Positions 20,747-63,559 of a stretch of 64,000 bases of DNA are shown here, piece by piece. The stretch's first letter is position 1. Every line of letters starts with the position of its first letter. The notes beneath the pieces are model-generated. The model was not told where the DNA came from and did not search any database. It was given only the letters and a program-made list of their open reading frames with translations. The stretch is from the IMG/VR virus record IMGVR_UViG_3300045988_127579; one strand, written 5' to 3'. The position numbers were made by a program, and so were the translations under genes. The stretch comes from a virus.

Positions 20747-20759
20747 GGAGGACCACTAA

Positions 20760-31800: not shown

Positions 31801-33586
31801 ACTTCTGACTGACACTAAAACAACTCTTGATCCAGAAAGAAAATCTTATTATAGAGATAATGGACATTTTTAGTTGGTAGCTATTCCAAAAGATTAGGTT
31901 AATAAAATAACAAAATCTGATATTAAAAATAATTAGATTTATTATTTAGATACAATAAATGGAGACAATAATAATCATAGTATAATAACTGATTATAATT
32001 TATTAATTGATATTTATAATAATTATAGGGGTCTTAATACTAATAAGCCAGAAATATCTGGTGTTATGTATATAAAAAATAATAATTAGATTGATGAATC
32101 TATTATCTAGAATGAGTTATAGGATAAATACCCTGATTTAATAATTTTTGTAGAAAATGTTAAACAAGAATGTTCTGCCAAGTTTATTTTAGAAAAAGAA
32201 GATATTGATGGAGTATTAATTTAGGAGGTTCTAAAAACTTAGAAATTACCCTTATCTAGCAGTAAATTCTTTGATGATCCAACAAATTCTTCTAGCGAAA
32301 CTTATATTTCTTTTGGTAGCTTACAAGAAAAAATGCCAACTTATGATTTTAAAGGTTGGGAAGATGATACGGGAGAATTAGTAATTGCTGTTGGAAAAAA
32401 TGTAAATGAAGAAGACGTTGTTTTAAAAAGCGATTGGAATTCTTTGTCTTTACAATCTAATAAAATGGATTATATTTTTAAAGCGAGATTTGAGCGCAAA
32501 TCTTATACGATCACTTTCGTTAATGGTGACCGCGTTATTAATGATTCAACTGTAAAGAAAGTATTTAATTATGGTGAAAGAATTACTGTTCCAGAAGAAT
32601 TTTATTATTTTAATAATACAGAAGTATCTGATTTACCAGAAGGCGAAGACTCATTAGAATGGACTTGGAGATAGACGGGATGGGCGGATAAAGATGGAGT
32701 TAAAATTGATTTAACTAAACAATTAGCCTATGCTGACCGCGAATTCTACGCTGTTGGAGAGCCGATTAGTGTTTATGATAATATTTTAACTAATGATTCT
32801 ACTCATAAATATTATGATATTATAAATTCTGATGGAGAGTTATCATTTGTAATGACTGACTTAGCTAAGAATTTAAAAGGTAAAGTTACTTTACCTACAA
32901 CTTATAACGGTTAGCCGATTACAAGAATTAAATATAGCCAAGTTAATCCATCAGCAGCAGTTGGTATTCAAGTAAATCCTAATATCACTGCGATATTTTT
33001 TGCTCCAAAAGATAGCAATAAAATTTCTGTAATAGATGATTATGCTTTTATTTTAGATAGTGGGTTAGAATATTTCCAATTTAGTGATTGTTTAAAGAAA
33101 ATTGGTACTAAAGCATTTTATCAATGTCCTTTAAGTCGTAATAACATAATTCCTTATTCTTCTTCTACTGAAGGTTTGACTTTTGGAGCTCAAGCATTTT
33201 ATCAAAGTAAGATGGGTTCTTATTCTCCTTATAATTTAATTATAGAGGGATGCAAAGACGGTATTCTTAATTTTGATATAAATGCATTTTCTGGTCAGAC
33301 AATTTTAAATATGTCTGGTAATTAGTTTAAAGGTTATACTGGCGCTATTCAAGTATAGATTGGTACTAATAAACACCCAATTAAACAAATTACAGCAGAT
33401 AGCTCTGGCAATATTTTTACTCCTCGTCAAACTGGTATGCCTACAGTGGCTAATGGATACACAGGTCGTTTTAGATATTATTATGTTGCTAGTTATGGTG
33501 AAAGTATTAAAAATACTTTACACAATATTTATGAAGCAATGATATCTAATAGAGCGAATTTTGAAGAAGAGCCTATTGTAAAGTGA
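25841..33586 (+). CDS. giant tail fibre / adhesin, about 2581 aa, with about 40 in-frame TAGs and BspA-like leucine-rich repeats near the C-terminus
   Basis: RBS GAAAGGAG; ATG 25841. Frame 2 links ORFs 26306, 26690, 26969, 27887, 28718, 30104 and 32333. I translated every gap segment codon by codon and found no TAA/TGA until TGA 33584-33586. The N-terminus (FRPVQGPEEKIKAYPQTDGYFYVATDTGRVYLD) is the shared fibre motif. An LRR-like stretch (AFILDSGLEYFQFSDCLKKIGTKAFYQC) lies at about 33.0 kb. Confidence 0.75.
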
Positions 33587-37794: not shown

Positions 37795-37972
37795 TCTAAA
37801 TGGATTTTTCCATCGTCGATTAATTTCTTCATAGCCTTTTTTAGGAAAATATAAAACTTCACCATATTTTTTTTTATTAGTCTTTAAGCGGTAATTTTAA
37901 AGTCCTTTCATAGTACTCTTTAGCCTATCCATTTCCACCTAAACCTGCATATACTTTAAAGAATTCGACTAA

Positions 37973-38305
37973 CTATTCATACTGCCCTGAAGTCATATAT
38001 CCTTGTTTTAAGAAACTTTGACATAACTGAATTAATCTAAATCTATAAGAAGCAAGAATTATTTCAATATATCTCTCACTAATTTTCTTTTCTTCCAATA
38101 CGAAAGATCTTAAATTATTTAGATCTTCTTTGATTGGAGCTATATGCTCTTCAATTAATTCTTCTAATTGTTCATCTTTCTTTTCTTCTGCCAATTTTTG
38201 ATACATTTTCATTTGAGTATAAATATATCTACAAAAGGCTAAGAGGCCAGCAGAAATAAGACCAAAAAATATTTCTATAAAATGCTAGGCAATAAAAGTA
38301 GACAT
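37973..38305 (-). CDS. small membrane protein: N-terminal TM helix plus charged helical tail; holin- or spanin-like; one in-frame TAG
   Basis: RBS AAGGAGG; ATG at 38305; TAG at about 38286; in frame with ORF 37973..38212. The sequence FIEIFFGLISAGLLAF is hydrophobic. Ends TAA. Confidence 0.55.
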
Positions 38306-38928: not shown

Positions 38929-39447
38929 TTACTTTGAAGTTGAGCCAAATCCTCCAAGGCGGTCACCAGAAGCATTATCGTCTTCGGTGATTAAATAAGG
39001 TTTAATAATACCTTGACCAATAACATCACCTTTATGAAGTTGAATATCAAAAGGAGATAAATTAATCATTTGAAAATAAATATGTCCTTCATTATCAGGA
39101 TTATTATAATAATCTGCATCAATAATCCCAACGCCATTAGCAAGAATAAGCCAATATTTTAAAGGGCAAGAACTGCGAACTGACAATTCAAGATATGTAT
39201 TATCATTTAATTCACATTTAATTCCAGTAGGCACAAGAGTTGGTTTTGCTTTAAGATTTTTTGTCATATTACCCATATCTTCAAGAGAAATTGAATCAAA
39301 ATAACGTGTTGGAAATCTATTTAACAAATTCTTGTATGCTGGAATTACAATATCTTCCGCTACTGTAAAATCGTAGCCTGCGGATTTTGCTGTTTTTCTT
39401 ACAGGCAAAACCGCATCAGGATATTTGCTTACTCGTTCAAACTTCAT
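38929..39447 (-). CDS. dut: dUTP diphosphatase
   Basis: Motifs SAGYDF, GVIDADY and RLGGFGSTSK; TAG-free; ends TAA. Confidence 0.85.
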   Translation of the reverse strand: MKFERVSKYPDAVLPVRKTAKSAGYDFTVAEDIVIPAYKNLLNRFPTRYFDSISLEDMGNMTKNLKAKPTLVPTGIKCELNDNTYLELSVRSSCPLKYWLILANGVGIIDADYYNNPDNEGHIYFQMINLSPFDIQLHKGDVIGQGIIKPYLITEDDNASGDRLGGFGSTSK

Positions 39448-40522: not shown

Positions 40523-40551
40523 ATTATATCACAAATTTTCTTTTTTGTCAA
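40523..40551 (-). promoter_or_regulatory. consensus sigma-A promoter: TTGACA, 17-nt spacer, TATAAT
   Basis: On the - strand: TTGACAaaaaagaaaatttgtgaTATAAT; drives gene 39956..40489. Confidence 0.6.
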
Positions 40552-41023
40552 GTTTTAAATTAATAATGTTCTAATTGCGAGAACCGCGCAAAGGTAAAGT
40601 AATATCTCTTTCCTTTTGGATATATGGTCCATCAATTAGATAATCAGCAGTTTTTAGTATATTCTTAATTCTAATATTATTACTATTCTTTAAATCATCA
40701 TAAACATATCCAGTCCATATATATATTTTAATGTTTGGATATATTTTTTTAATTTCAGTAATAACTAAATTAGTTAAAAATTCGTTTTCAGGGCAGAGAG
40801 GTTCTCCACCCATAATACAAAGATTACGCGCAACATTATTCGCATTAATAGCAGTAATTAATTCATCTAATACTTTATTAGTAAATTCTTTGCCACCATT
40901 AAAATCCCACGTTTCAGGATTCTGACATCCTTCACAATGGTGCGGGCACCCTTGTGTAAAAAATGATACACATACTCCGGGTGCCGCCGCCAAATCATTC
41001 TTTATAATTCCTGCATATTTCAT
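40529..41023 (-). CDS. nrdG: anaerobic ribonucleotide reductase activating protein (radical SAM); canonical end is a TAG followed by a 14-codon extension to TGA
   Basis: CxxxCxxC motif CPHHCEGC. Overlaps nrdD by 4 nt. The ORF-track end at 40571 is a TAG. Confidence 0.8.
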
Positions 41024-43341
41024 TCTAATGCTCCTGTATGTTTTACTCTTGCTTCAACTTCTTTTTGTTTACCCCAGTTAAAAGCAGTTTTATAATTGCC
41101 TGTAAGATAGCCAGTTACACGACGTAATTGCTGAATATTATGGCTTCCACACACTGGGCAAGAATCATTAAATTCATCACAATAACCGCATTCAAGGCAA
41201 GTGTCATTAGGAACATTTACTGCGAAATAAGGAATATCATGATCCATAGCATAATTAACAATAGTTTTAAGAGCATCAATATTATGTTTTACAGTAGAAT
41301 CAAGTTCAACATAAGTGATACATCCTGCGGATGAATAACCAGTCAGCTCAGATTCAATATCAATTTTTTCAAATGGACTCATTTCTTTCCACACCGGAAC
41401 ATGAATACTGTTAGTGAAAAATTCTCTATCACTAACATTAGGGATAATTCCATACCTTTCTTTAAATTTCGTCATAGCTGTATAACAAAGATTTTCTGCT
41501 GGAGTATAGTATACACCAAAATTTAATTTATATTTTTCTTTGTATTCAGCGCATCTTTCTTTAAATAATTGTTCAATTTGTTTAGCTAATTCCATTCCTT
41601 CTGAAGTGGTGTGGTCTTTACCAATAAGAATTTGAAGAGTTTCTGCCAAACCTAACTGACCAATAGCAAGAGTTCCATGCTTAAGAGCAGAACGAATTCC
41701 CTCTTCTGGGATATAGCCTGCCATAACGTTATTTTCATACATAAATTTCGCGGAACCTGGATCTTGAGAACAAATCCACTCAAAACGCTCCATTAATTGA
41801 ATACGCGCTTCATTGATTTTTCTATCGAGTAAAGACATAAATCGTTCTACGCCAATTTTAGTCCGTTCTTCTTGAGACAATGATTTATAGTCATCCCAAT
41901 TATCATTTTCATTTAGAGTAACGGCCATCATCGCTAGAGTAGGAAGAATAATAGTAACTGGACAAATATTTCCACGTCCATCTTTAAGCTGGCCGAATCC
42001 ATTAATATCCCATCCATTCGCGGTTCTGCATCCCATCGTAGAAAAATAAGTGCGAGGATCATTAATATCATATCCAGCATTACCGGACCAATCAACATTT
42101 GCATAATTAGGATAAAGGCGTCTTGCGGTGCTTTCTAATGCTAATCTATATAAATCATAGTTAGGATCACCAGGTTTGCGGTTAACACCTTTCATACATT
42201 GGAAAATTCCACAAGGGAAAATCGAAGTTTTATGAAGTTTACCAAGACCTTCAATAGAAACATCTAATAACGCCTTAGTCACCATTCTGCCTTCTGGTAA
42301 GGTGCAAGTGCCATAATTAATACTCGTAAATGGTAATTGGTTACCGCTACGAGACTGTAAAGTATTAAGATTATGGTAAAGACCTTCTGCAGCTTGATGA
42401 GTCTCACGGACAGTCATATCATAGGCATAATCATAAGCCTTTTTATAAGTTTCAGAAGCTAATAAATAACTAACTGCATTTTCTTCTTCAGTTTTTGTTG
42501 TGGCATTTCGGTATGATTGAATAGGCATTTTTGATGTGTCTAAATCTCCTAATACATTATTAACAATATAGTTATAATCATTAGGACTATATAAGTATTT
42601 AACTCCATCTTTAAAATGCTTCCAAAAAGATTTTCTTACATAAGGAACCATAGTCCAATCTAAGTGAGTGGCACTAACTCCGCCAAACTAACAAAGACTT
42701 TGGATTTGAAAAATAACAGCAATTAATTGAAATGCTGTATTAATTGAACCCGCAGGACGAACATCTGCTTGACGAGTATTAAATCCATTAGCAAGCAAAT
42801 TATCAAAAGGAATACTTAAACAGTTATGAGAACCAACATAATAAGAATCAAGATCGTGAGTATATATCATATTATCAATATGATTCTTACGAGCCATAGG
42901 GGAAAGTAAGTAATCAAGTGCAAGTTGTTTGGTGACAACACCACTTGCTTCACCTATACGACCACCGAATGAATGTTCATCAACATTAGCATTTTGATTT
43001 TTTACGTTATTACCATCGAGCTTTTCACGAATTGCTTTAATAAAATCATCTTTTTTATTACGAGCAACTTCTTTTTTATATCTATATCTGATATAAGCAC
43101 GAGCAACATCGCGTCGCTCAGAACGCATTAAATAATCTTCAATCCAATCTTGAAGATCTTCTACTCCAACACTTCCATCGGGGAAATGATTTATTTGTCT
43201 TTCAATGTCTTCCGCGATATCTTTTGCGGTATCATCTTCATATAGTTTACCATCAACTTCAATAAATGCTTTATTTATTGCGTTAATAATTTTCTTTTTA
43301 TTAAATTGAGTTATACTTCCATCACGTTTAATAATATACAA
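41020..43341 (-). CDS. nrdD: anaerobic ribonucleoside-triphosphate reductase (class III), about 773 aa, one in-frame TAG at 42688-42690
   Basis: ORFs 42688..43341 (ATP-cone N-terminus, TTG start, GGAGG RBS) and 41020..42651 are in one frame, joined by TAG + FGGVSATHLDWT. Has the C-terminal Cys cluster and glycyl-radical region RVTGYLTG. Confidence 0.85.
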
Positions 43342-43416: not shown

Positions 43417-44022
43417 TTATTTATCTTGGTCCATTTCCGCCCATTGCTTAACTTTTTGAGTTAAAAGATTAACAATATTATTATAATCTTCTAATGTTTC
43501 ATTTGTCACAACATTGCACTTAATATCATTCATTAGCTAAAATTGAATTTCATCAGTAGTATATCTTCTAATGATTTCATTTACATCAGGATTTTTTTCT
43601 CTATTTAATTGCCTAATTAAGCGTGTCTTTCCTTTAGCGGTAATATAATATATCTCCAATTCAATTCTATCATCTTTAAGAAGACTTATAATTCCTTCAG
43701 GATTAAAAACACCAATATTAACTTTACTATCAGACAAACTATCAATACTTGTGCCATAATACCAATTATTAAAAGAAGTGGTTTCTAACATTTTATTTTC
43801 ATCAATTAAAGTTAAAAACTGGTCATCTGAAACAAAATGATAATTTTTGTCTGCTATTTCTTTTTCACGCTTCGGGCGCGTAGTGTGGCTTATAATAGGA
43901 TTTAAATATTCCTCTAAGTGGGAAAAGGTAGCCATCATTAGGCTATCTTTTCCCGCACCAGATTTTCCACATAATGCAATAATTTTATACATCTTCTTCA
44001 ATTCCTCCTTGATAACGAGCAT
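43417..44022 (-). CDS. guanylate-kinase-like dNMP kinase with a TAG-bridged C-terminal extension
   Basis: P-loop GKSGAGKDS and motif ISHTTRPKRE. The ORF-track end at 43537 is a TAG, and the frame continues 40 codons to TAA. Confidence 0.65.
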
Positions 44023-47000
44023 CTTTTAAAACTAAATCGCCATTAGATAAAATTTCATCAATTTTATATAATTGATGCCCTCCAGAAGAAGCATATTTTT
44101 TTGACATGAAATTATCTCCATTGCGGATTCCAGAGACTACAATCATATTTCCGCGATTAAACCAAGATTTTTCAACAATATGTTTGGTTCCATCTGCACC
44201 GCGCTCTGAAATTTGTTTATCAAACAAACTAAAATATTCTTTTCTAAATTTTACTTCTACAGGACCAGTAGTAGTAAGGATAGTTACGGTACTTTTAGTT
44301 TTATTTTTGGCAATACAAGTTCCGCAAATTTTAAATAACTTATAAATATGAATAGTATGATTTCCTTTAGTAAAACTTCTATCAATTATTGGGTCTTCTG
44401 GAAGTTTAAAGAAATCTACAAATCCATATTTATCATTGTTAATATTGTTTAATTCATGAGTATGATAATAATAACAAAGAACTTCCATTTCCCAAGCGGA
44501 TAGATTATTTTTATTAGCGTATTTATCCCAATCATCTTTAAATATTTTTATATTCAGATTATTCAAAATTTCATCTTTATTATTAGCAATCCAAGTGCGA
44601 AATATATCCATCCACTTTTGGTATATACCATTCCAAATATTTTCACTTAAAGAATAATTAGTTCCATCAAATTGAATATTATTATCTTCTCCAATTTCTA
44701 CTAAGAAATTAATAGCTCGTTCATCAAGTTGATATAAACCATTATTTTTTGTAGTTTTACAAATTGCTTTTAAATATCTATTAAATTCATAAATACGGCG
44801 AGCCATAATTTGATTTTCATTTTCTTCTGGAAGAAGATCATACTTCATAAGTCCGCCCATATTTTGAAGAGTAATTCTTTTCTTTTTGTCGCAAGTTTCC
44901 CAAATATACCAAATCATTAATTCTTTTCTATCCATCATATTATCAAAAGCTCCGCCTTTAATAAGAGAAATCATAGCTTGTTTACCTGGCTTAATACGAT
45001 ATAAAAATTCTTTAGGATTTGAATAAGGGCGATTGGCAATGATTGTATTAACTAATTCATCACCAACATTTAGCATACCTTTTAGTCCAAAAAGGATTTT
45101 ATTATTTTCAATATCAGGGGCAAATCCAAATTTAGATTTGTTAATATCAGGAAGACCTACTTCAATTCCTGCTTTTTGAATGTCACTAATAGCCTTGGCA
45201 ATTTTTCCATAATCAGTAGCCGCGGTTTTGCGGATTTTGCCACTTTTGTCAGGAAGATCTTCAAATGTTACTCCATTAGCTAAATCATCGCCTTCAGGAG
45301 CATAAATATCGACAATCTCTTCTTCGCTATTATCTTCAAGGGAACCACTATTAACAATTAAACAAGCGGTATCCCAATAGATAGGATTAAAATGAATTAC
45401 TAAGTAAATCATTTGAATTGCTACAAATGAATAAGGAAGGGAATGGTTAAGGCTAAATGCATATCCTAATTGAGGAGCAACTGCAATTTCCCAAAAGTAT
45501 TCAGCAGATTTTTCATTATCAAATTTACTAAATACTTGTTCTCTCAGTTGTGGAATTTTAGCCATTTGCTTTTTAGCAACAATCTTACGCGCAGTATTAG
45601 CTTCACCAAGAGTAAAATGAGCTACATCCATAAGGATTTCCATCATTTGCTCTTGAATAGGACAACATCCATAATATTTATCACAATGCTTATGCATCTT
45701 ATCAATTAATTCTTGTGGAAGATGCTGAGCCTTCATTTCATCATCAAATACTTTAATACCCGAATGTTGAATGCGATAATATCTATCTTGCTGTGATTCC
45801 TTGCCTTTTTCAGACATAAGACGCATCATAGCATTTGCCGCCGTCATTTCCATAGGGTCTTGGGGTTTAAGACGTTTCGCAATTGCTAAACCAACTCCCG
45901 TAGAAAATTGGAATACATCTAATACATCACCCGCGGCAAGGTGGTCCCAAATTGCTTGGTCAGTTGTATCTATTACTTCTGGATGAATATATTTATTATA
46001 GAATTCTCGTAAAGATAATTCTGGAATTTGTTTATCTTTTAGAAGTAATTGATAACAAGTAATAATTTTGTCAGAAGCTTCAGTTACAAGGAAGTCATAT
46101 TTTGTATCTCCCGCGGCTTCCGCTTTATGAAGATCCCAACAAGTAATCATATCTCCACTAGGAGTTCTCATAAATGATGCTGTATCAAATGGATCGTCAC
46201 CATACAAAATAACGCCAGAAGCATGAGAAGAACGTTTATTAACCATTCCTTCAATATATACAATAATATTCAAAAGACCAGGATATTGGTTTACTTCTCG
46301 AATAAATGCTTGAACGGGTTTACGGTCTTTTTCTTCATTACCATAAATAACATCATGGATAGGCCATAAAAATCCACGCTCTTGGGGAATTAATGAAGAC
46401 ATATATTGAGCATTATCAACATCAATTCCTTCTGGAAATTCTTCACTTCTATATCCACGACAAGCAGTTAAAATACTTTGTTTAGTGCCTTCAGTTCCAA
46501 ATGTAGCAACTTGAACCAATCCCAATTCTCCGCGTTCTTTTCTAATTGCTTTAAAAATTGCGGGACGCTTACTTGGGGCAAGGTCAATATCAATATCGGG
46601 CAATTCCGCGCGCTCCTTATTTAAAAATCTCCAATAAGGAAGTCCCCAACGAATTGGGTCTAATTGAGTAATACCTAAAAGATAATTAGATAAAAAGCCA
46701 GTCGCAGAACCACGTCCAGGACCTACAATACTTCCACATTCCCAAAATAAATTAATATAATGTTGGAAAGTATTAAAATAAGCAAAAAGACAGTCATCTA
46801 ATTTTTCGCCAATATCTTTTATGATATCAGCTTCAATTTCAAGTCGTTCCAAATAATTTTTATTATTATAAAGTTGCTTTTCTTGTAAAGCTTTAATACA
46901 TTCATTTACCCAATATCGTTCTTGAATATTGTCGCTATTAATTAAAGAACAGATAATTGGATATTTATCGAACCAATTTGAAGGAATAAATCCTTTCTTA

Positions 47001-47976
47001 TAATCCTTTACTTCAACTTTTGGAATAATTTGTTTTCTTTCTAATGAATAAAAAGAAATTTTATTTTGGATTTCTTGAGTGTTATCAAGAATCCAATTTA
47101 TCAATTCTTTTCCTGTTTTATTACCTTTATCCCAATCATTAGCATAAGGTTCCATTAATTCAAAAATTTCATCACTCGTCATTAAGTAAGTAAATTTATA
47201 AAAATCGTCAACTTCTCTTTCTCCTGGCTTAGAAGTAAGATATGCTTTATGAATGGATCTATCGTCTTTAGTTAAATAATGCGCATCTGTTCCAACTACC
47301 ATTTTTAAATCAAATGCCTTGGCGATTTGATAAATTTTATGATTTACAATTATTTGCTCAGCATCAGTAGATGGCGCACATTCAAGATAAAAATCATCTT
47401 TTCCAAATACTTTAATACAAAAATTGATATAATCAATTATTTGATTATAATATTTAGTTTGAGTTTCAATATCTTTGTTTAATTCAGCTTGGAACATTGG
47501 TAAAATACAACTCCCAAGTTCTCCACCAATACAAGCAGTTGTTGCTATAACATGCCCTTTATATTGTTCCATTACCATTTCAAGTTCACTTTTTAAAGTA
47601 GGAACTCGTTCCATACGTCTATCAACATAACTATGAATCCAAGCAATAGAACTTAATTCTCTTAACGCTTTATGTCCAATGGCATCTTTAGCAATAAGAA
47701 TAAAGTGGTAATATTTTTGTCCGTTATCTCTTGTATCAGTGAGATAAATTTCATTACCAAGAGCAATAGTAAAATCAGGATTTTCTTCTCTTATTTTTTT
47801 TGCATATTGATTTACTTCCATATGCGCAGAAAGGCATTCATGGTCTGTAATAGTTATTCCTGATAGGCCTAATTCTATCGCTTTGTCAATAAGAGCTTGT
47901 GGTCTATTAATACAGTCAAAGTAAGCGGAGATTCGAATACATAGTATGATTATGGATACCAAAATATGATCTCATT
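43985..47976 (-). CDS. dnaE: DNA polymerase III alpha subunit (DnaE family), TAG-free; apparent +1 frameshift needed after 19 codons
   Basis: The 1325-aa ORF 43985..47962 carries PHP and polymerase domains. A well-placed ATG (RBS GGAG, ATGA overlap with the HNH stop) starts a 19-codon frame encoding MRSYFGIHNHTMYSNLRLL (PHP motif HxH[ST]xYS) that stops at TGA inside CTT TGA C. Confidence 0.8.
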
Positions 47977-48637
47977 CTAACTCCAGCCCTCCTTCCAAAT
48001 TCATTATTTTATCAATAAAATAATCTGAAGTAGTATTTGTTTTTATTTTAAAAGCATTCCATTCTTCCATTGTCATATCTCTTTTTGAAAAATTTTCATA
48101 AACTGTTAAAAATTGATAATTTTCTAATTTTTCTTCTCCACCTTTGGAGATTGGAATTATATGATCTAAGCTAGGTTTGGCCCAATCATAAAATGTTTTA
48201 TTTTTATTCTTATTATTATTCCAAAATTGGTATACTTTATTAAATTGTTTATCTTGCCAAAAATATCTTATAATAGTTTTATATTCTTCAATATGATTAT
48301 TATAATAAAGCAAATCTCTATGAGTAATTCTTAATGCTTTATGTAAAAATAAATATTTTTCAAAATCTTCTTTAAATTCATTAAGAAAATCTTCTTCAAC
48401 TTCTATATAAGTTGTTGCTTGGAAAGCTTTTTTCTTTCTATCACAACCACAACTAGTTTGGGTATAATTCCCATTCCCTGTTAAATATGAAGTAGGCACT
48501 TTACAATAATTGCCGCATTCACATTTACACAGCCAATAATTTCCATGGGTTTGTGTCGGACGTTCTTCTATTGAGCAAAGACGTATAACTTTTAATTTTC
48601 CAATTTGTTTATCAGTTAAGTCATATTTTGTAGCCAT
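47972..48637 (-). mobile_element. free-standing HNH homing endonuclease gene (221 aa)
   Basis: HNH motif PSLDHIIPISKGGEEKLENYQFLTVYEN with an N-terminal Cys cluster; TAG-free; located immediately upstream of dnaE. Confidence 0.75.
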
Positions 48638-49003: not shown

Positions 49004-50203
49004 TTACTTCCTTATAATTACTAATTTATCACTGGCTCTAGTAGCCATAGTATATAAATATTTTTTATGTTCTTCTCGATCAAAAGGATGATTTTCTTCA
49101 AATCCTAATACTTTTCCATACTCACTACCTTGTGCTTTCCAACAGGTAATAGCGTAAGCATAGGAGAAATCAAGTGGAGGATCGAGACATTGTTTATTAT
49201 TTCTTAATTGATAGCATTGGCTACCTGTAAGAGTCCCTTCACCGGTGATAAGTTGTTTATAATCAATTGGAGTCCCACAAAATTTATCTCCATCGCTTAA
49301 AACAATTTGAGTAAACATATAAGTAATAGGAACTTCTGAAATATAATAAGGGACTCGAATGTCTTCAGTATAAAAATCTTCAATAGTTCCAACAGTGCCA
49401 TTAGTTAAGGCCCATACTCGATTCTCAGACATAAAATCCCAGTTATTATGTAACCCAATAATTTTATCTCCAATTTGAGGGACATTAGGATCAAACCCTT
49501 TTCTTAATCGGACTACATTATTAATTTTAGTTCTCGTAGCATTTTTAGCACAAATAATCTAATCTGCCCAATCGTACATTTCAGGTATAACTTGACTTTT
49601 ATCATATACTCTTACTTGTTTTCCTTCTGGACGATAAGAAATTAAAGATTTGCCTTCTCTAATCCACATTGAAAAACGAATAATTTCACTATCTTGCGCT
49701 TGACGCATAATTTCATCGAGAAAAATATGTGGTTTATCTAATACACGATTATTTTCATTAGGATCTACAGGAGGTAATTGACCTGGATCGCCGGCCGCAA
49801 TAATATAAATACCATGGGTTAGCATTAAGTCCCATAACTTTTTAGGAAGCATTGATACTTCATCGACAACAATTACTTTATATTGGGCTAATTCACTGTT
49901 ATCTTTTGGAAAAAATTTAAAAGTTCCATTAGCCATCATTTTAGCTTTATATAAAAGTTTATGCGCGGTTGTCGCATTCGGGCAACCCTTTTGTTGAAGC
50001 ACAGTCGCAGCTTTACCTGTAAATGCTACATAACAAACTTCTTCTTCTGGATCAACATCAAGAGCAGAAATAATAAATTTAATCAAAGTGCTCTTTCCGC
50101 TTCCCGCGTATCCCGCTATACAAGTCCAACGCTCATGGGCGTAATAGCGCTCAACCGCAATTTTCAATCCTTCTTCTTGTTTACGAGTTAATTCCATTTT
50201 CAC
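49004..50203 (-). CDS. SF1B Dda/RecD-like DNA helicase (about 399 aa), one in-frame TAG at 49559
   Basis: ORFs 49559..50203 (Walker A GYAGSGKST, Walker B VVDEVSM) and 49004..49432 (motifs V/VI TCWKAQGSEYGKV) are in one frame bridged by TAG. Confidence 0.7.
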
Positions 50204-51571: not shown

Positions 51572-52411
51572 TTAATTAGTAAAATAATTATAAGCAGTGG
51601 TCGCATTCTTTTGTCTTTGATTTAAAGAACTTGATCCACAACGCTCATAACATTTTGCAAAAGCTTTAGCAACTTCTTTTTCATCATTTAAATTTAAAAA
51701 AGAATTAAAATTAAATCCTCTTTTATATGAAGAACCAAAAGTATTAAATTCATATCCAATAGTATTTATTAAGAATTCGCATTGTGTATCTAAATCAGAA
51801 TACCAAACACTTGAATATCCTTTACTCCATTGACAAATTCCATAATAATATTTATTAGAAGCAGTTGGCTGTAAAGATAAAGTATTACCGCCACATTCTG
51901 CCATCATATTACCCAAAATACCGGCGCAAACCGCGTCATTCCATCCTTGGTCTTTCATATAAAGCCAAATTTCTGTCGCTACTGGATAAGTAGATGATTT
52001 ATCATTCCATTGAGAATTAATTTTATCTAAACGATTCTGATAAATTTCCAAATATCCATTAGCGGTTTCATATTCTTTTTTAGCAAATTCAATAATAGGA
52101 TGATTTTCATCATATCCTAATGCTCTCGTTGCTTCGGCTAAGTCATGAGCACTATTTACAATCTCTTGATACTCTTGGATTAGAGATTTGAGCTCTTTAC
52201 GGTTAACTGTATTATTAATTTCTCTATCCATAGGCTCCATATCAATAGTTTCTTCTGGTAAAAAATTATATACAGTTGATGATTCAGAAGGGATGTAAGC
52301 TTCCGAAAAAGTAGTGATTTCGCTATAATTTAGAGCAAGAGCTGATGTTTGTAAAATAAAAATTAATACAAAACAAATAATGCTTCCTGCTAAAATCTTA
52401 TATCTTTTCAT
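51572..52411 (-). CDS. secreted peptidoglycan hydrolase with a phage-tail-lysozyme-like domain (279 aa), TAG-free
   Basis: Signal peptide MKRYKILAGSIICFVLIFILQTSALA; motif AGILGNMMAECGG...YGICQW; strong RBS TAGGAGGAAA. Confidence 0.6.
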   Translation of the reverse strand: MKRYKILAGSIICFVLIFILQTSALALNYSEITTFSEAYIPSESSTVYNFLPEETIDMEPMDREINNTVNRKELKSLIQEYQEIVNSAHDLAEATRALGYDENHPIIEFAKKEYETANGYLEIYQNRLDKINSQWNDKSSTYPVATEIWLYMKDQGWNDAVCAGILGNMMAECGGNTLSLQPTASNKYYYGICQWSKGYSSVWYSDLDTQCEFLINTIGYEFNTFGSSYKRGFNFNSFLNLNDEKEVAKAFAKCYERCGSSSLNQRQKNATTAYNYFTN

Positions 52412-52464: not shown

Positions 52465-54213
52465 TTAAAAATAATAAGCAGCCCTATCTACAATTTCGTA
52501 ATCTTCTATAATAATCTAAGGACTAATGTTATTATTCCATATATTTCGTTCGCATTTACCAACGATATTAATTGTCACATAACCCTATTCAGAATACAAT
52601 TTCTCGTATTCCTCCTCGGACGACTTAAACTTGATTAAACTGATGCCATCTGGCATAGTTATCTTCAAGGTAGGATTTTTATCTTTTGACATTAAAGTTA
52701 AGTTATTTGATGCAACTTTTATTCCTTCAACGGCAATAGATGCTTCTTCTACCCCTTGGCCCCAAAGTGATTTAAGTTGAGCGATATCAATAATATCTTT
52801 TCCAACTAAATCATTAGTGTGATAAATAAAATCAACACTATAAATTGGGGTGAAATCAAAATCTTGTAAAGCAGAATTCGCATATTCAATAAATTTATCA
52901 AAATTATCATCAATAATACCAAATCCAAAAGCATTAGGATGTCCTTCCGCATACATAATTAGATTTGATTTTTGACAAAATTCTCTAAAGTCTTTAAGCG
53001 CGGATTTGTCGTATCCTCTGCCGGAGCCTTCCCAACAAATTTGTTGAGTTTCTTCATCTATTGTTTTATTAAGAATTAAAACAGGACGTTGATATTTGCT
53101 CATTAATTGATTGGCCATTAATCCAGTCAAATTTTTGTCAGCAGCAAATCCATCTAACTTAATTCCTAAGATTTTATTACTTAAAAGATTTTGATTTGCG
53201 ATTATCTATTCAATTTTTTCCAAGCTAGTGTCTCTGATTTTAGTTTGCCTATTCTTGATATTAGTACAATTACGACAAGCTTGTTCTACTCTTGTCTCTG
53301 CTTGACCTTTACATCCACGTTTTGTTGAAGGGACAAGTTCGTATCCCTTAAAATCAAGCATTGACTCGAATAGCATGAGCTTTTCTTCTTGCGTCCCAAC
53401 ACGAGTAGTTGCATTAACTAAAGGAGCAATATAGAAAGCTACTCCAATAGGCGTAATCTCATTATTAAAATGAAACTAATCTCTATTGATTATGCCTCTG
53501 AAGCAAGGATTGGTGATTTGTTGTAAGCCTTTATTAATTAAATGTTTTGTTTCAAAATCACGCATATCCATCATGTCGGCCACCATTCCAAGAGCAACTA
53601 AATCCAATATATGATCCGCGTATTGAACGTTCATAAGTTCATCAATATAACAACAAAACTTATAAACCATTCCTACGCCAGATAAAGATTTTGTCGGATA
53701 ATCACATAATTGATTGTTAATAATACAAGCATACTATGATATTTTATCAGCTTCATGGTGGTCTATTACCAACACGTCAATACCATTTTTATATAAATAT
53801 TCGTGTTCTAAATAATCATTTGATGAAGAATCTGGAGCAATTACTAATTTAATATCTTTATCAATACTATCTGGTATAATTCCGTGTTGTTTTCCTGCAT
53901 GGACACGATAAAAAATATTGTTTTGCACAAACGCAGGAAAAAGACAGTATAAGTAATTCATGAGTGCGGCCGCCGAAGTATAGCCATCACAATCACTATC
54001 TACCTATATAAGAACTTTGTCATTTTGTGCAATATGTTTGACGAGCATTTTTGCACCATTTTCTATTCTATCAATAGTTGCTGGTTCTATAATGTCATCA
54101 TCAGTGGTATTAAGATAATGAGGAATATCTTGTAATTTAATTCCTCTATTGGTTAGCACCTGTTCGACCGCTGAATACTGCGGGATGCGAGGGGCTTTTA
54201 GTTGATAGTCCAT
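52465..54213 (-). CDS. recJ: RecJ-like DHH/DHHA1 ssDNA exonuclease (about 582 aa), 5-6 in-frame TAGs
   Basis: Four ORF-track pieces (54004, 53734, 53476, 52585) are in one frame through TAGs. Motifs DSDCDGYTSAA, LVIDHH and AEGHPNAFGFG. The canonical end is a TAG followed by a 39-codon extension to TAA. Confidence 0.7.
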
Positions 54214-54600: not shown

Positions 54601-54887
54601 AAACCGCTCTCTCCCATCTTATGCCCTAATGGACAAATATGAAAAAGAACAGGAATTTCCATTTCCGTATATCCTTTTTCTAAATCTCCATTATATCTAA
54701 TTACTTTTCGAGTTTCAATTCCACTTGATATACACTTACTGGTTTTATCATAATATTTATTACATTTATCGCAATAAATACAACTTCGGAGCAAACTATC
54801 TCTTTGTTTTTTTAATCCTTCGATTTGCGCGCTCAGTGAAATAATTGTATCATTTACAGAGATAGGAATATCATAATCATCATTCAT
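54597..54887 (-). CDS. small zinc-ribbon protein (96 aa)
   Basis: CxxC...CxxxC pattern; ORF. Confidence 0.45.
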   Translation of the reverse strand: MNDDYDIPISVNDTIISLSAQIEGLKKQRDSLLRSCIYCDKCNKYYDKTSKCISSGIETRKVIRYNGDLEKGYTEMEIPVLFHICPLGHKMGESGL

Positions 54888-55987
54888 ATAAATATCCTTT
54901 CCTTATATAATTGTAAAAATTTTTCTTTACCATCATCAATTGGTGAATCTTTGTATTTTGTAATCATATTTTTATCAAAAATAAAAGATATAAGCACATC
55001 ATTTTTAAATTTAGTTCTAATTTTTAAAAGATTTAACTTTAAGTGTTGAAATTCTGCGTCTCCAATTTCTTGGAATTGTCTATCAAAAGCAATTATAATT
55101 TCTTGCGCACCACTATCTAATAATAATTGAATTTGATGCGAAGAAACATTACTTCCGCAACAAGCTACTGATATATTGTTATTCCAACCGAAATCAGTAG
55201 CATATTTCAATACTGATTTTTCACTTTCAAAAATGATTGCTTTTTTCATTATGCCAATGGCCTTTTTAGACCAATTTAATCCATATAAGTTCATTCCAAG
55301 AGGATGATTATATAATTGATTATTTATTTTCATTGGTCTATATTTCCCATATAGCTCCGCCTCGTCTTTGCACATGGTGCGTCCGCGCAAGCCTACAAAT
55401 CTTCCGCTAATATCATAATGAGGAATTGTAATTTGATCGGCTCCTGGATAAAAACCAATACGTGCTTTATTAATTACTTCTTGAGAAATTCCTTCATCAA
55501 GCCAAGGAATTATTTTAATATTATAATTTAATCTATTTAAAATAGAATCATCATAATCTTTTAAAATAATTTTATTATTTTTTAATTCAATCTCTTGGAT
55601 ACGAGAATAATTTGATAAAATTTTCCAATCATCTAAAGTTTTACCCATATCGTCATCTTTTATCATGCCTGACAAACCAAAACGACGAGCAACCCATAAC
55701 ACTGAATCATTTAAATCAAATTCTTCATCATATTGAATTTTCATTACTTTAGAACATAATTCAAAAATATCAAAAGTTGAATCGCATCCCGTGTAGCATT
55801 TAAATAATCCTGTATTTTCATAAAAATAAAGTTTTCTACTACCTTCTCCAGGAGGATTATGACAAATGGTGGAAGAGAGAATCCCGAATTCTGTATATTC
55901 AGGATCTCCGCCCCATTCAATTAATAAATCATAAATATTTTCAAGCCCAAGAGCTTGACGAATTTCTGATTTATCAAATACTATCAT
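54884..55987 (-). CDS. dnaG: DnaG-type DNA primase (367 aa), TAG-free
   Basis: CHC2 zinc finger ICHNPPGEGSRKLYFYENTGLFKCYTGC; TOPRIM motifs IIFESEKSVL and AFDRQ. Confidence 0.8.
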   Translation of the reverse strand: MIVFDKSEIRQALGLENIYDLLIEWGGDPEYTEFGILSSTICHNPPGEGSRKLYFYENTGLFKCYTGCDSTFDIFELCSKVMKIQYDEEFDLNDSVLWVARRFGLSGMIKDDDMGKTLDDWKILSNYSRIQEIELKNNKIILKDYDDSILNRLNYNIKIIPWLDEGISQEVINKARIGFYPGADQITIPHYDISGRFVGLRGRTMCKDEAELYGKYRPMKINNQLYNHPLGMNLYGLNWSKKAIGIMKKAIIFESEKSVLKYATDFGWNNNISVACCGSNVSSHQIQLLLDSGAQEIIIAFDRQFQEIGDAEFQHLKLNLLKIRTKFKNDVLISFIFDKNMITKYKDSPIDDGKEKFLQLYKERIFI

Positions 55988-56173: not shown

Positions 56174-57709
56174 TTAAAAAGCTGACTCTTCTTCAAGAGT
56201 AATTTTTATATCATCAATAGGAACAAGTTCATAAGCATATGTAGTACAAAACATAGGAATAATTCTACAAGTTCCTAAATCTGCTTTACACCATAAAATA
56301 ACTCCTTTATACCTACCACGTCTATTTTTATAAACAGACATTTTAATAGTTGGAGTATCAAATAATTTTGTGTTTAGTATTTTTTCTAATGAAATTAAGT
56401 CATCATCTTGAACATTTAAAAGAATTGATCCATAATCTACTTTATCTGCGATAGATTTTGCTCCACGCAAAAGATTCTGGTCAGGAGTTTTAGAATCAAC
56501 ATAATCACCATTTAACTGTGTTGCTGACATAATAAAAACACCGTATTGATTACAAATATCTTTTAATTTGTTAGATAGCATAAAAAGTATGTTATCTTCA
56601 CGAAGTTTTACTCCACCACTACGACGAGTAATTTCTTCAAGAATTTTCATGCTTGTATGAATATAGTCGTGAAATATATATTTTACATCGTGATCTCGGA
56701 TGCCTTTTTTGATTTCATTCTCGACATCCTGCAATGAAAAATCAGGTAATTCACGGATATACAATGGGCTATCTTTAAGAATTTTTGCGGCCTCTATTAC
56801 TCGTTCTTTTTCATTTCCTTGATATTCATTATAAATAATATGTTCTTCATTCACATTAGAAAGAAAAGCAAGCATCATTGTTTGAATTTCATTTTTATCT
56901 TGCTCTGTAGTTATATACAATACTGGTTCTTGAATTCCGTTTTTAATCCAACTTCCAAAAGTATCATCATATATTTTATTACAAGCAATATAGCACGAAT
57001 CCGCAATCATAGAACGAGTTTTACCTACTCCTGTGGCCGCGGAACGCAAATAAAACTTTTTAAGTCTTGCACCACGAGTAACTGTATTAATTAATGGCCC
57101 ATATAGAGGACTTCCTGCTATTGGATGTTGCTCTAAGTCATCAAGCAATTCAAAAATTCCATCACCTGCTTGAACCGCAACTCCTTCAACGTCATTTACA
57201 TACTCATATTTAATTTGTTCTATGCGGTCATCAATTAATTGTGCGATATGCTCTAATGAAGAATTATCAAGATTATCTTCTTGTAATTGTTTTTTTTCAG
57301 TATCTAAAATATTATCAGGGTCATAAATAAAAGAAACATCAATGCCATATCTGTCATAAGCGCGAAGTAGAGACATTTTTTTTAAACGACCATAATAATA
57401 ATCAAATGATAAAGGTTTCGCATTTTCAGAAACTTTTAATAACCACTCTTCGCCTTTATTAACTTTAAATGTAGCTTCATATTTAGGGCGAGAAGAAAGA
57501 AAATCACTAATATTTTCTAAAGTAATTTTCTAAGCTCCTAATTCATGAATTTTATATATTGCTCCAAAAACAATTCTATGAAATTCATCAGCGAAATCTT
57601 CATCAGTTATTATATATCTATCAGTAAAATCCAAAAGCTAAGGAGTATTATATACGCACCCTATAACTTGTGTAATCGCTGTTGGGTCTACATATTTACT
57701 CGGCATTTA
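56174..57709 (-). CDS. dnaB: DnaB-family replicative helicase (about 511 aa), 2 in-frame TAGs in the N-terminal domain
   Basis: RBS AGGAGG + ATG at 57709. The frame joins through two TAGs to ORF 56174..57376, which has Walker A AATGVGKT and a RecA-like C-terminal domain. Confidence 0.75.
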
Positions 57710-58250: not shown

Positions 58251-58320
58251 TTTATGTATATAAATTACTCCTTTCCATTACTTTATATAAATATTATACA
58301 ATATTTTTAAATAAAAGTCA

Positions 58321-58348
58321 AACCGGAGCGACTTTTATCACTCCGGTT
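58321..58348 (-). terminator. hairpin terminator
   Basis: Stem AACCGGAG / CTCCGGTT with a 12-nt loop; T-rich flanks on both strands. Confidence 0.6.
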
Positions 58349-58364
58349 ATAAATTATATTTTAT

Positions 58365-59360
58365 TTACTTATTTTCCATTTGAGGAAGAAGATCATCTTT
58401 AATTTCGCCAACAATTAAAGATACAAATTCTGCCTGTTCAGGAGTGGCGTCAGAAATTTTCTTGCCTTTACCCAAATATTTATCAATAATTTGAGTGATA
58501 CGAGGACCAAAGAATCCAGGATTCTTATTCATCATATCTCCAGCAAGATTTTGGAATTCAGCCATAAGTGCTTCATAATCATAAGTAGGAGCTTCAGGGG
58601 CAACGACCATCTTTTCATCAGTGACAAATTTACCACCATTGTCAGCTGCTTCCTTATCAATAGCCTCATGGATAGCATTAATAAGACTATCATAATTCAT
58701 AGGAATTTCGCTTTCAATATACTTGAAACGACCACCACAGTCAATAAGGTCATTACCAGAACGAAGAGTTAGGACAGACATTTGGCCGGCCGCCTTTTGA
58801 TGAGCATATCCATAAACATCAGCCATACCGGTGATAATAGTGCGAGTGGATTGAGAAAGATTTGGTCTTACTGCCACAACCTCAGTGCCATCAGGACGAG
58901 TTACAGTTTGTTCTTTTTCATGTCCGATAAAGAAAACGGCATATCCAAGACGAGTTAAACCTCTAAAGACTTCATTAAATTCATCTTTAAACTTAGACCA
59001 GCCCTTACCATAACCAAGGTCTCCAAGAGATTCAATCTGATTTTGATTACAGATATATTTCTCACAATATTTAGCGGCTTCATCAATAGTATCTACAATA
59101 ATAGCATTATACATTGCCTTTACTTCTGGACGCTTCAAATCACGATAAACTTGCTTCATTTCTGCCCAAGAAGTAATGTCCGCGGCCATAACACCAGGAA
59201 GGCAGTTATAGCCTTGCTCAAAAGCTAAAAGCAAAGAATTCGGCATTTGAGTCGCCAAAGTAGTCTTGCCTGTCTTGGGCTTGCCATAAATAAAAGTAAT
59301 ATAACCAGAAAGATCTTTACTTACCTTATGAGGTTGAATTTTAGTTAAATCAATAGCCAT
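58365..59360 (-). CDS. Sak4-like (AAA_24) RecA-fold recombination ATPase (331 aa), TAG-free
   Basis: Walker A GKPKTGKTT; typical size and context, next to an SSB-like gene. Confidence 0.65.
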   Translation of the reverse strand: MAIDLTKIQPHKVSKDLSGYITFIYGKPKTGKTTLATQMPNSLLLAFEQGYNCLPGVMAADITSWAEMKQVYRDLKRPEVKAMYNAIIVDTIDEAAKYCEKYICNQNQIESLGDLGYGKGWSKFKDEFNEVFRGLTRLGYAVFFIGHEKEQTVTRPDGTEVVAVRPNLSQSTRTIITGMADVYGYAHQKAAGQMSVLTLRSGNDLIDCGGRFKYIESEIPMNYDSLINAIHEAIDKEAADNGGKFVTDEKMVVAPEAPTYDYEALMAEFQNLAGDMMNKNPGFFGPRITQIIDKYLGKGKKISDATPEQAEFVSLIVGEIKDDLLPQMENK

Positions 59361-59507: not shown

Positions 59508-60455
59508 TTAGAATTTAAAACCTTCTGTAGCAGGGGATGCGACAGTAGTAGCAGTAGTAACATTCTGCTTAGAAGCTTTATATTCATCTTGACGCTGCTT
59601 CAAAGTAGCAAGGTAAGTCTCACGCGCGGCCATAGCTTCAGTAAGCTCTTTCGCAGTGATAGAACTTTCATCATCCCAAACATAAGGCTCCTTAGCGCCA
59701 CCGGTAATAACAAAATCCTTACGAGTGCTTTGAACCTCACGAACATTATCATCGCCAAACGCAGACTCTTCACGAATCTCGCGCTTAATTACTTCAGATA
59801 CCTGACGACCCCAAAGCTTTGTGAACACAGGCTCAGAAGGAGAGGCTCCAAGACCTTCGTAATAAGCCATAGCTCCAGGATTAGTAGCTGTAAATTCAAC
59901 AGGAAGCAAAGACTTACGAAAATCAAAAATTGCTCCCTTAACAATTACTTTTTCAGGGATATTGTGCTCTTCATCAGCATCAACATGAGTTACATTGGTG
60001 ATAATCATGTCGCACTTAAAAGTATTGCGCTGCTTTTCATCATCAATAAGAGTAGTAGTAGTATGAACAAATCCACCCTCATTGCGCTTAGTGCTTACAA
60101 GCTCTTCCTTACCATTACGGTCAGAATAAAATTCATTAAGACCAATCGCGGAATCAACACGAAGCTTAGCAGCTTTATCTTCTCCATCAGCCATATAATT
60201 ACCGATTGTACCATCAATAATATTCTGAAGAATACTATATGTAGCATTAGGAGTGCCCTTAGTAGTAGTTTGAGTTACATAAGTAAAGTGAACCTGGACG
60301 ATATTAGTAAGAGCATTATCAGTAGCAATACTAATAGTACCAGAAATAAAAGGAGTGCCGGGGTTTTTAGAATTTGGTCCGGTTACCTTATTTTCCAAAG
60401 CATGTTCGTACAAGATACCTTCAATATGAGTAGCATTTTCCATTACTTTCTTCAT
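59508..60455 (-). CDS. abundant early protein, putative ssDNA-binding protein (315 aa); GC-rich and TAG-free
   Basis: Adjacent to the Sak4-like gene. GC content is well above the genome average, and no stops occur on the antisense strand either. Confidence 0.45.
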   Translation of the reverse strand: MKKVMENATHIEGILYEHALENKVTGPNSKNPGTPFISGTISIATDNALTNIVQVHFTYVTQTTTKGTPNATYSILQNIIDGTIGNYMADGEDKAAKLRVDSAIGLNEFYSDRNGKEELVSTKRNEGGFVHTTTTLIDDEKQRNTFKCDMIITNVTHVDADEEHNIPEKVIVKGAIFDFRKSLLPVEFTATNPGAMAYYEGLGASPSEPVFTKLWGRQVSEVIKREIREESAFGDDNVREVQSTRKDFVITGGAKEPYVWDDESSITAKELTEAMAARETYLATLKQRQDEYKASKQNVTTATTVASPATEGFKF

Positions 60456-62934: not shown

Positions 62935-63204
62935 TTACTCCGCGTCAGGAGCGTCGGGATCAAAGCTCATGCCAGCGGGAGTGAGAGAGAGGAACTTGAC
63001 CTGCTTATGAGTGCCATCCTCAAGCTCAACCTCAGCGGGAGTGCGAAGACCGAGACCCTTGCGCTGAATAGCACTGGTAAAGATACCATCAACAGAACGC
63101 TTCTCGAGACCGAGAGCCTCAGCAACATCAGCAGCGGTAACTTCCTGACCGTTAACTTCCTTCAAATAATTAAGAACCTTCTTAGAATTTTCCTTCATAG
63201 CCAT
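62935..63204 (-). CDS. small winged-helix / histone-like DNA-binding protein (89 aa), strongly GC-rich and TAG-free
   Basis: TAADVAEALGLEKRSVDGIFTSAIQRKGL; about 55% GC locally in a roughly 30% GC genome; sits under a consensus promoter. Confidence 0.55.
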   Translation of the reverse strand: MAMKENSKKVLNYLKEVNGQEVTAADVAEALGLEKRSVDGIFTSAIQRKGLGLRTPAEVELEDGTHKQVKFLSLTPAGMSFDPDAPDAE

Positions 63205-63530: not shown

Positions 63531-63559
63531 ATTTTACAAAAAATTTTTTTATTTGTCAA
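63531..63559 (-). promoter_or_regulatory. consensus sigma-A promoter TTGACA-N17-TAAAAT with the same spacer repeat
   Basis: On the - strand: TTGACAaataaaaaaattttttgTAAAAT; near-identical 21-nt element to the 63279-63307 promoter. Confidence 0.6.

Follow-up and report, generated by a model that had tools for sequence, protein, structure and literature searches.

Graded use of TAG as a glutamine codon across the genes of a large gut siphovirus, with a candidate +1 frameshift site in dnaE

The window analysed here, the whole 64-kb stretch of virus record IMGVR_UViG_3300045988_127579, is about 40% of a siphovirus genome of roughly 160 kb from the human gut that belongs to the Enterococcus-EF1 / phAss-1-like group, and in this phage TAG is a glutamine sense codon that its genes use to very different extents. 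TAG makes up a far larger share of the glutamine codons in the structural arm of the window than in the replication arm, and across diverged recoded lineages the avoidance of TAG, as judged from orthologous loci, is gene-specific and conserved in dnaE, the primase gene and the genes of the major capsid protein (MCP) and the tail tube. The reading that we favour, and think somewhat probable, is that TAG use would be set gene by gene by selection: the codon would be avoided by genes independent of suppression and by genes of maximal throughput, and TAG-rich genes would be delayed after transcription. A candidate +1 frameshift in dnaE is the less expected item.

TAG as a glutamine codon and its share in the two arms

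With TAG as sense, open reading frames (ORFs) of at least 100 aa cover 95% of the window, compared with 62% under genetic code 11 and 66% with TGA as sense, and the tape-measure, portal and tail genes are unbroken only when TAG is a sense codon. The residues found opposite the window TAGs in orthologues of less than 90% identity follow the order Q > TAG > E > K, the same profile as at CAA and CAG, and the TAGs at nrdG codon 151, nrdD codon 218, Dda codon 213 and recJ codon 566 fall on positions where glutamine is essentially invariant in homologues; the nrdG TAG is faced by 20 CAA and 2 CAG, and the nrdD TAG by 12 CAG, 10 CAA and 7 TAG. Every gene model built with TAG as sense stops at TAA or TGA, and TAGs lying close to 3′-ends are faced by sense codons in orthologues.

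The window is AT-rich (30% GC) and consists of two converging arms, its genes lying on the + strand in the left arm (1 to ~37750) and on the - strand in the right arm (37877-64000). Genes were called with TAG as sense, and TAG, CAA and CAG (the glutamine-type codons) were counted per gene, the share being TAG/(TAG+CAA+CAG). In the structural arm (1-37750, +), 200 of 12,346 codons were TAG and 348 were CAA or CAG, which gives 36.5%; in the replication arm (37877-64000, -), 31 of 8,223 codons were TAG and 268 were CAA or CAG, which gives 10.4% (0.365 vs 0.104; odds ratio 5.0, Fisher p = 1.3e-17). The ratio of in-frame to out-of-frame TAG was 0.31 in the structural and 0.11 in the replication arm, and out-of-frame TAG trinucleotides were merely 1.5-fold apart between the arms; base composition is therefore no explanation of the arm contrast. 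The original prediction, made from the letters alone, had held that TAG density tracks expression timing; the density stays non-uniform once glutamine content is corrected for.

The structural arm holds the following features.

613-1596, + strand: tail tube (major tail) protein, 327 aa; 0 TAG, 5 CAA, 4 CAG
1787-1818: terminator downstream of 613-1596
1846-2916, + strand: 356-aa gene between the tube and tape-measure genes; 12 TAG among 19 glutamine-type codons
3625-11937, + strand: tape-measure-like protein, 2770 aa; 79 TAG, one per 35 codons and 39% of glutamine-type codons
12053-15370, + strand: tail protein, 1105 aa, weak PHROG match to minor tail protein; 24 TAG among 39 glutamine-type codons, the top ratio among large genes
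15571-23377, + strand: tail and baseplate genes of 963, 768, 114 and 756 aa; 14, 9, 1 and 10 TAG
25841-33586, + strand: virion-arm protein, 2581 aa; 27 TAG, one per 96 codons
37746-37791: bidirectional terminator with a 20-bp stem, the meeting point of both arms

The replication arm, in which most gene names are backed by Pfam and PHROGs, holds the following.

37877-38305, - strand: 142-aa protein with one N-terminal transmembrane segment, presumably holin-like; 3 TAG among 10 glutamine-type codons
38383-38895, - strand: RuvC-like resolvase (weak Pfam RuvC); 3 TAG among 8 glutamine-type codons, TAG-rich in all recoded lineages
38929-39447, - strand: dUTPase (dut); 0 TAG
40529-43341, - strand: nrdG (named by domains) and nrdD; 1 TAG each, at nrdG codon 151 and nrdD codon 218
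43985-47975, - strand: dnaE (DNA polymerase III alpha), 1329 codons in two frames, Pfam PHP, DNA_pol3_alpha, finger and HHH_6; 0 TAG, 50 CAA/CAG
49004-50197, - strand: Dda/PIF1-like helicase; 1 TAG, at the conserved glutamine of codon 213
51572-52411, - strand: signal-peptide lysozyme (Phage_lysozyme2); 0 TAG in all lineages
52465-54213, - strand: RecJ-like DHH nuclease; 6 TAG among 30 glutamine-type codons, TAG-rich in several lineages
54884-55987, - strand: DNA primase (phrog_47); 0 TAG
56174-57706, - strand: DnaB-like helicase; 2 TAG, N-terminal (codons 23 and 59) and in this lineage only
58365-59360, - strand: Sak4-like AAA_24 ATPase; 0 TAG
59508-60455, - strand: 315-aa protein, 39.6% GC; 0 TAG, 6 CAG, 3 CAA
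61862-62875, - strand: GIY-YIG domain protein; 4 TAG among 19 glutamine-type codons
63279-63307, - strand: perfect sigma-70-type consensus TTGACA-17-TATAAT upstream of 62935-63204, a consensus match only
40523-40551 (12/12, with TG), 58293-58321 and 63531-63559 (11/12): similar sigma-70-type sites, consensus matches only

Such sigma-70-type sites were in total no more numerous than in shuffled controls; the replication arm has the few perfect ones on its coding strand, and they would support an earlier expression of TAG-free genes at most indirectly.

In the replication arm 19 genes lack TAG, where a uniform low rate predicts 18.8-19.2, and most single-gene P values exceed 0.2; dnaE is the sole replication gene that is individually depleted (0 of ~50 glutamine codons, p ~0.005, which is not significant after correction for 35 genes). 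The gradation from genes without TAG to genes with few TAGs is therefore inseparable from noise within the window. A list of TAG-free genes could accordingly be no more than short genes give at a low uniform rate. For single short genes of the window this explanation stands, but for the contrast between modules it is refuted by the arm difference given above, by TAG heterogeneity that is present in both arms (permutation p = 0.004) and by gene patterns that are conserved across lineages, and chance as an account of the whole distribution is very improbable indeed.

The gene-by-gene counts of the original prediction were reproduced, with no TAG in 613-1596 (327 codons), the primase gene (367), the Sak4-like gene (331), 59508-60455 (315), dut and the lysozyme gene, and with low numbers in nrdD (1/773), dnaB (2/510), the Dda-like gene (1/397), the ruvC-like gene (3/170) and the recJ-like gene (6/582). 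Some of its other details did not hold. A rate of one TAG per 15-30 codons in tail, fibre and tape-measure genes was overstated, the real range being 1/30 to 1/96; the ribosome-binding site of 613-1596, claimed as the strongest in the window, has an AAGGAGG that is not unique, since several genes carry the same core; and dnaE, correctly described as TAG-free, has 1329 rather than ~1345 codons, counted from an ATG at 47975 and through a +1 frame change at 47921-47915. The description of core replication as TAG-free fits dnaE and the primase gene, but dnaB has 2 TAGs and nrdD, nrdG and Dda carry TAGs at conserved glutamines. The gene at 59508-60455 had been called SSB-like, a label that was unconfirmed: it has no Pfam, NCBIfam or PDB match, its sole PHROG match (phrog_2367) is of unknown function, and an AlphaFold single-sequence model was unusable (pLDDT 34). 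The protein of 613-1596 matches phrog_2729 virion structural protein (E 2e-55), and its profile matches the tail tube proteins 8k98/9jgh in the PDB (E 0.009); the gene lies directly upstream of chaperone-like genes and the tape-measure gene, and has the top fraction of C-ending codons in the window. The product of 3625-11937 would be tape-measure-like from its size and position, and many of its TAG positions are also TAG, or CAA/CAG, in relatives.

TAG avoidance and enrichment across recoded lineages

The dnaE loci of diverged TAG-recoded lineages (76%, 85%, 71%, 63%, ~46% and 37% DnaE identity) were compared using one representative per lineage and a pooled TAG background of 7.8% of glutamine-type codons. 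Pooled counts were depleted for dnaE (0/192 in four recoded lineages, P = 2e-7), primase (0/94, P = 5e-4), the signal-peptide lysozyme (0/65, P = 0.005) and nrdD (5/192, P = 0.002), and enriched for the ruvC-like gene (22/47, P = 8e-13), the recJ-like gene (27/148, P = 3e-5) and the 142-aa membrane protein gene (6/19, P = 0.002), all of these P values being optimistic because the pooled lineages are related by ancestry. At the same level of conservation, 75% identity for the recJ-like gene and 76% for dnaE, the former is rich in TAG and the latter free of it, and therefore evolutionary rate is not the cause. Lysozyme-domain genes occur with both kinds of TAG use: 51572-52411 has 0/65 in every lineage, and an endolysin gene at 1592-2896 of locus L063 has 8/25.

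A historical origin by mosaicism was also considered, in which replication modules exchanged with standard-code or TGA-recoded relatives would stay code-neutral and fast-evolving tail genes would gain TAG by C-to-T drift from CAG. This is consistent with a single DnaE family that contains TAG-recoded, standard-code (L017, L030, L036, L044, L046) and apparently TGA-recoded (L027, L038) members, and with module identities that differ strongly within one contig (IMGVR_UViG_3300045988_122866, DnaE 100% vs tube 76%). It accords poorly with the recJ-like/dnaE pair, with a lysozyme that is only 43% identical between lineages and still TAG-free, with the alternation of TAG-rich and TAG-free genes over distances of a few kb on one arm, and with the 0/192 of dnaE, which is hard to reach by drift at the background rate; we regard history as a quite improbable explanation.

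The layout outside the window is a composite walked along relatives. In it, a block of 40-47% GC is followed by the terminase/portal/capsid/tube/tape-measure/tail genes (TAG share 0.28-0.37) and the replication arm (0.10-0.11), then by a ligase gene and two genes of topoisomerase-like subunits with TAG ~0 (named from N-terminal motifs only), a bifunctional endolysin gene (Phage_lysozyme2 + Amidase_2, 8 TAG/25) accompanied by a holin-like gene, itself TAG-rich in the sister lineages, next by an early-like block (0.04), and finally by an RNA-ligase region, the first of two tRNA clusters, fibre-like genes (0.32) and the second cluster. TAG density follows gene function, not strand or position, with TAG-rich fibre-like genes lying by a tRNA cluster and the TAG-rich endolysin gene inside the replication super-arm.

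The proposal that the TAG-free major structural gene may escape a limit on suppression efficiency gains support, as MCP and tube avoid TAG across lineages. The MCP (368 aa) is encoded shortly upstream in relatives, and its distant homologues are annotated as MCP; it has 0-1/12 TAG among glutamine-type codons in three alleles and 0/17 and 0/15 in two distant lineages, and the tube gene has 0/9, 0/10 and 1/12. In three lineages, these genes and that of a 305-aa neighbour carry no or almost no TAG and favour CAG. This escape of the most abundant virion proteins from recoding suggests a cost of suppression that persists into late infection. Nearly all glutamines of the capsid protein and the 305-aa neighbour are encoded by CAG (15/15, 16/17 and 9/11; L047 3994-6035, L061 4484-6078 and L001 15266-16303), in lineages whose genome-wide preference is CAA over CAG by about 4-10 to 1.

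Suppressor tRNA and readings of the TAG distribution

No tRNA genes were found within the window, and no tRNA with a CUA anticodon in ~137 kb of a 159-kb reference contig; ARAGORN recovers the suppressors of phAss-1, so the tool works for suppressor tRNAs. A metagenome scan located tRNA(CUA) at 4705-4777 of locus L286 and 6230-6302 of locus L295, on contigs 95-96% identical to this lineage, and the notion that the lineage has no suppressor tRNA was thereby overturned. The gene lies ~45-50 kb past the right end of the window on the strand of the replication genes, has Leu, His, Arg, Ile, Val and Tyr tRNAs as neighbours, and carries G73 and an unpaired 1:72 (U1*C72), features that we take to fit glutamine identity as established for GlnRS. 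From these contigs we infer that the exact genome of the window probably carries the gene as well.

Two side observations concern other tRNA genes. The tRNA-Lys(UUU) gene at 9742-9881 of locus L275, on the contig IMGVR_UViG_3300045988_122866 mentioned above, is split in the anticodon loop by a 68-nt insert, which by eye folds into a tRNA-like mini-element that has an acceptor stem of 7 bp, both a D and a T arm and a 3′ GCCA but lacks an anticodon arm; this tRNA was detected by Rfam and missed by ARAGORN, and is uninterrupted in sister contigs. At 8537-8665 of the same locus, a RAGATH-33 RNA (126.8 bits, above the gathering score) lies in the tRNA cluster where sister contigs have tRNA-Leu(UAA).

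In the selective reading that we favour, the phage would decode TAG as glutamine by its own tRNA(CUA), and each TAG would be a contest between this tRNA and the host RF1, so that TAG-rich genes would be efficiently translated only with abundant suppressor tRNA and hence be delayed; we infer the timing, the RF1 competition and a yield cost per TAG. One set of avoiders (the early-like blocks, dnaE, primase, the topoisomerase-like subunits, ligase and nrdD) would be made without relying on suppression, a second set (MCP, its 305-aa neighbour and the tail tube) would be held to maximal throughput and would also have switched from CAA to CAG, and TAG would be tolerated or favoured in low-copy virion, fibre, endolysin, holin-like and late DNA-processing genes (ruvC-like and recJ-like). 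TAG-rich genes of late function are interleaved with TAG-free ones on the same arm and apparently in shared units, and therefore any gating would be translational.

Expression level alone, with TAG slow, leaky and purged in proportion to the needed protein yield and with no temporal gating, would account for the TAG-free MCP, 305-aa neighbour and tube genes and their strong CAG preference in three lineages, for the agreement of a C-ending codon index with CAG share (rho 0.81 and 0.61), and for the GC-rich, CAG-rich and TAG-free genes 59508-60455 and 62935-63204. However, ordinary codon bias (index 0.10-0.13) goes with an absence of TAG in dnaE, primase and the topoisomerase-like subunits, and polymerases are not abundant, so that throughput alone cannot explain the TAG avoidance of dnaE and primase; the endolysin, ruvC-like and sister-lineage holin-like genes are strongly TAG-rich; and the codon-bias index shows no overall correlation with TAG fraction in the window (rho -0.26 and -0.04). 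We consider this explanation unlikely.

Several observations also weigh against the selective reading itself. The missing correlation with codon bias is one of them, the throughput effect being visible only in the few most biased genes, and the optimism of the pooled P values is another. The TAGs at invariant glutamines of nrdG, nrdD, Dda and recJ mean that suppression must work while nucleotide-metabolism and helicase genes are translated, and with dnaB, nrdD, nrdG and Dda all needing it there is no clean phase of replication before suppression in this lineage. The TAG-rich ruvC-like and holin-like genes appear in the same transcription unit as the TAG-free dut, and TAG-rich fibre-like genes lie on both sides of the tRNA(CUA) gene. 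Finally, neither a release-factor motif (GGQHVN-type) nor a GlnRS gene was found in any of the loci.

Late- and lysis-gene-biased stop-codon recoding was reportedly described by Ivanova in 2014. In the published model, early genes are compatible with the standard code and late and lysis genes are gated by suppression (10.1101/2021.08.26.457843; PMC7886860; PMC9523058), and gut phages with recoding biased in this way include the crAss-like, Lak, Garnet, Topaz, Agate and Jade clades (Yutin 2021, PMC7886860; Borges 2021/2022, 10.1101/2021.08.26.457843; Peters 2022, PMC9523058). The timing model of the original prediction is this Ivanova/Yutin/Borges hypothesis and no new idea, and the present data fit it; the class-biased TAG pattern is real and significant at module level, and has already been described for other recoded phages. 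The present phage resembles recoded gut phages such as the crAss-like and Lak phages in reading TAG as glutamine, in a phage tRNA(CUA), in AT-richness, in close relatives with other codes, and in replication genes that are standard-code compatible beside recoded structural and lysis genes. It differs from them in lineage, being a large siphovirus with probable Bacillota hosts and a DnaE, in having several replication genes with essential TAGs, and in that no code-change module of release factor or aminoacyl-tRNA synthetase was found in the ~147 kb examined; moreover, the tube gene of crAss-like phages is reported as preferentially recoded, whereas the tube gene here avoids TAG. A well-sampled non-crAss lineage of hundreds of contigs is thus added to the evidence that phage stop-codon reassignment is graded by gene class, and the published model is sharpened by gene-specific conserved avoidance, by gating that would be translational if it occurs, and by the exemption of abundant virion proteins.

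The dnaE frame change and the phage group

The start of dnaE involves two elements on the - strand.

47915-47921, - strand: CTT TGA C, the candidate +1 shift site of dnaE, the same heptamer as at the prfB/RF2 site
47972-48637, - strand: HNH-like endonuclease, 221 aa, present in some relatives only; 0 TAG, with a TGA stop that overlaps the dnaE ATG (ATGA)

The dnaE ATG at 47975 has a suitably spaced GGAGGG before it and shares bases with the stop of the HNH-like gene. Its frame runs for 19 codons, MRSYFGIHNHTMYSNLRLL, holds PHP motif I (HxH..YS) and then meets TGA, and the rest of DnaE (1310 aa, DCINRPQ...) lies in the +1 frame. Compared with in-frame alleles (..TTA CTT GAC..), the shifted ones have one extra T. 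Five distinct frameshift alleles in 10 sequences were found, which include relatives only 71% identical and come from other samples, and the site is also present in four further ENA assemblies of different samples, where pipelines call a truncated 1278-aa DnaE; by these repeated occurrences the site appears reproducible and not an assembly error. It is polymorphic, sister genomes with a 99% identical DnaE being in frame. Over the first 20 dnaE codons, the shifted allele departs from an in-frame one at 11, and every change is synonymous in the ATG frame; therefore the ATG frame is translated. The HNH protein beside dnaE was indexed in 64 blocks of the collection, and the dnaE start next to it looks like a homing-endonuclease co-conversion or immunity tract, as the 11 codons differ synonymously from HNH-less alleles.

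In prfB, which encodes RF2, a short zero-frame ORF ends at the UGA of CUU UGA C, and an internal Shine-Dalgarno-like stimulator stands ~3 nt upstream of the CUU. The dnaE site resembles it, as read from the sequence, in the identical CUU UGA C, in the short zero-frame ORF up to UGA and in a full-length product only after a +1 shift. It differs in that no Shine-Dalgarno-like stimulator was present 3 nt upstream of the CTT, in AAUCUCCGCUUA, in that the local RNA fold was no more stable than shuffles (z = +1.05), and in that the gene encodes a replicative polymerase, not a release factor, and has a polymorphic site. In the collection of papers searched, no report of +1 frameshifting in phage dnaE was found. 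As a tentative possibility, which we hold to be doubtful, DnaE synthesis in many genomes would depend on a prfB-type +1 frameshift, so that DnaE output would read RF2 availability and couple replication to a host termination state perturbed by TAG reassignment; if RF1 were out-competed, for example, each UAA would be left to RF2 and the RF2 load would go up. In the distant dnaE relatives L039, L040 and L045 (46-47% identity), frame disruptions near locus position 10000 follow the HNH motif of the PHP domain as an in-frame TAG or TAA (e.g. AAT TAG C in L040), and may reflect further recoding, other start codons or plain errors.

IMG/VR, ENA and two bins of metagenome-assembled genomes (MAGs) in GTDB contain many near-identical contigs (97-197 kb), and the genome size is probably 159-164 kb, as in several of them. 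No nucleotide-level match of this lineage, including dnaE, was found among GenBank phages. At protein level, the relatives of the 613-1596 protein, the capsid protein and DnaE are Enterococcus phages EF1/VRE9, SPbeta-type phages and phAss-1, at 37-50% identity; in tblastn against the EF1 / phAss-1-like group, identity was 40-50% for tube, 37-39% for DnaE and 40-50% for MCP. Placement in this group is consistent with the homologous MCP, tube, portal (phrog_2739) and DnaE and the very long tape-measure gene, and a crAss-like identity was ruled out by the matches of tube, MCP and DnaE to phages EF1 and phAss-1 and to phages of the SPbeta type. A host could not be taken from GTDB, where the only matches are MAG bins ('Mollicutes' and 'Clostridium sp.') whose contigs are the phage itself. 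The first contig of the GTDB species-representative MAG 'uncultured Mollicutes bacterium' (L283, CAMELE010000001.1, 163,874 bp) encodes a DnaE that is 98% identical, and is probably a mis-binned phage.

The phage phAss-1 (proposed Phassvirus) and its relatives, the EF1-like monophyletic group, were described by Babkin 2023 (PMC10607447), and NCBI files phAss-1 under 'Caudoviricetes code 15 clade'. Both phages share code 15, a tRNA-Sup-CTA and homologous MCP (50%), tube (~50% over the aligned part) and DnaE (37%), and in phAss-1, too, TAG lies mostly in virion genes and some DNA-processing genes and the tape-measure gene is very long. They differ in that protein identity is only 37-50% and gene order is other, in that the phAss-1 stretch examined has 136 kb and ~43% GC compared with ~160 kb and 30% GC for the present genome, and in that the phAss-1 suppressor tRNAs adjoin nrdD. 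Within the DnaE family of the window, TAG-recoded members occur beside the five standard-code-looking ones listed above, and in others (L023, L027 and L038) ORF coverage gains only with TGA as sense (L038 from 0.79 to 0.945); judged by such coverage, one phage group would seem to hold all three codes.

The high-GC block of the composite (at least 14 kb, 40-47% GC; L202 6000-20360 and L122-L139 1-5000) adjoins the terminase module and contains small same-strand genes, among them an AbrB/SpoVT-like one recognised by eye, with no convincing in-frame TAG or TAG stop; five of its small code-11 ORFs end at TAG, all with non-ATG starts, and look spurious. The block was ruled out as a prophage host flank because, over its length of at least 14 kb, it is conserved in every contig and dense in small phage-like genes. 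In the early-like block, a 461-aa membrane protein gene (L107 7698-9083; 47% GC, 19 CAG, 2 CAA), SPFH/flotillin-like by eye, looks from its composition like a recent acquisition from a higher-GC source.

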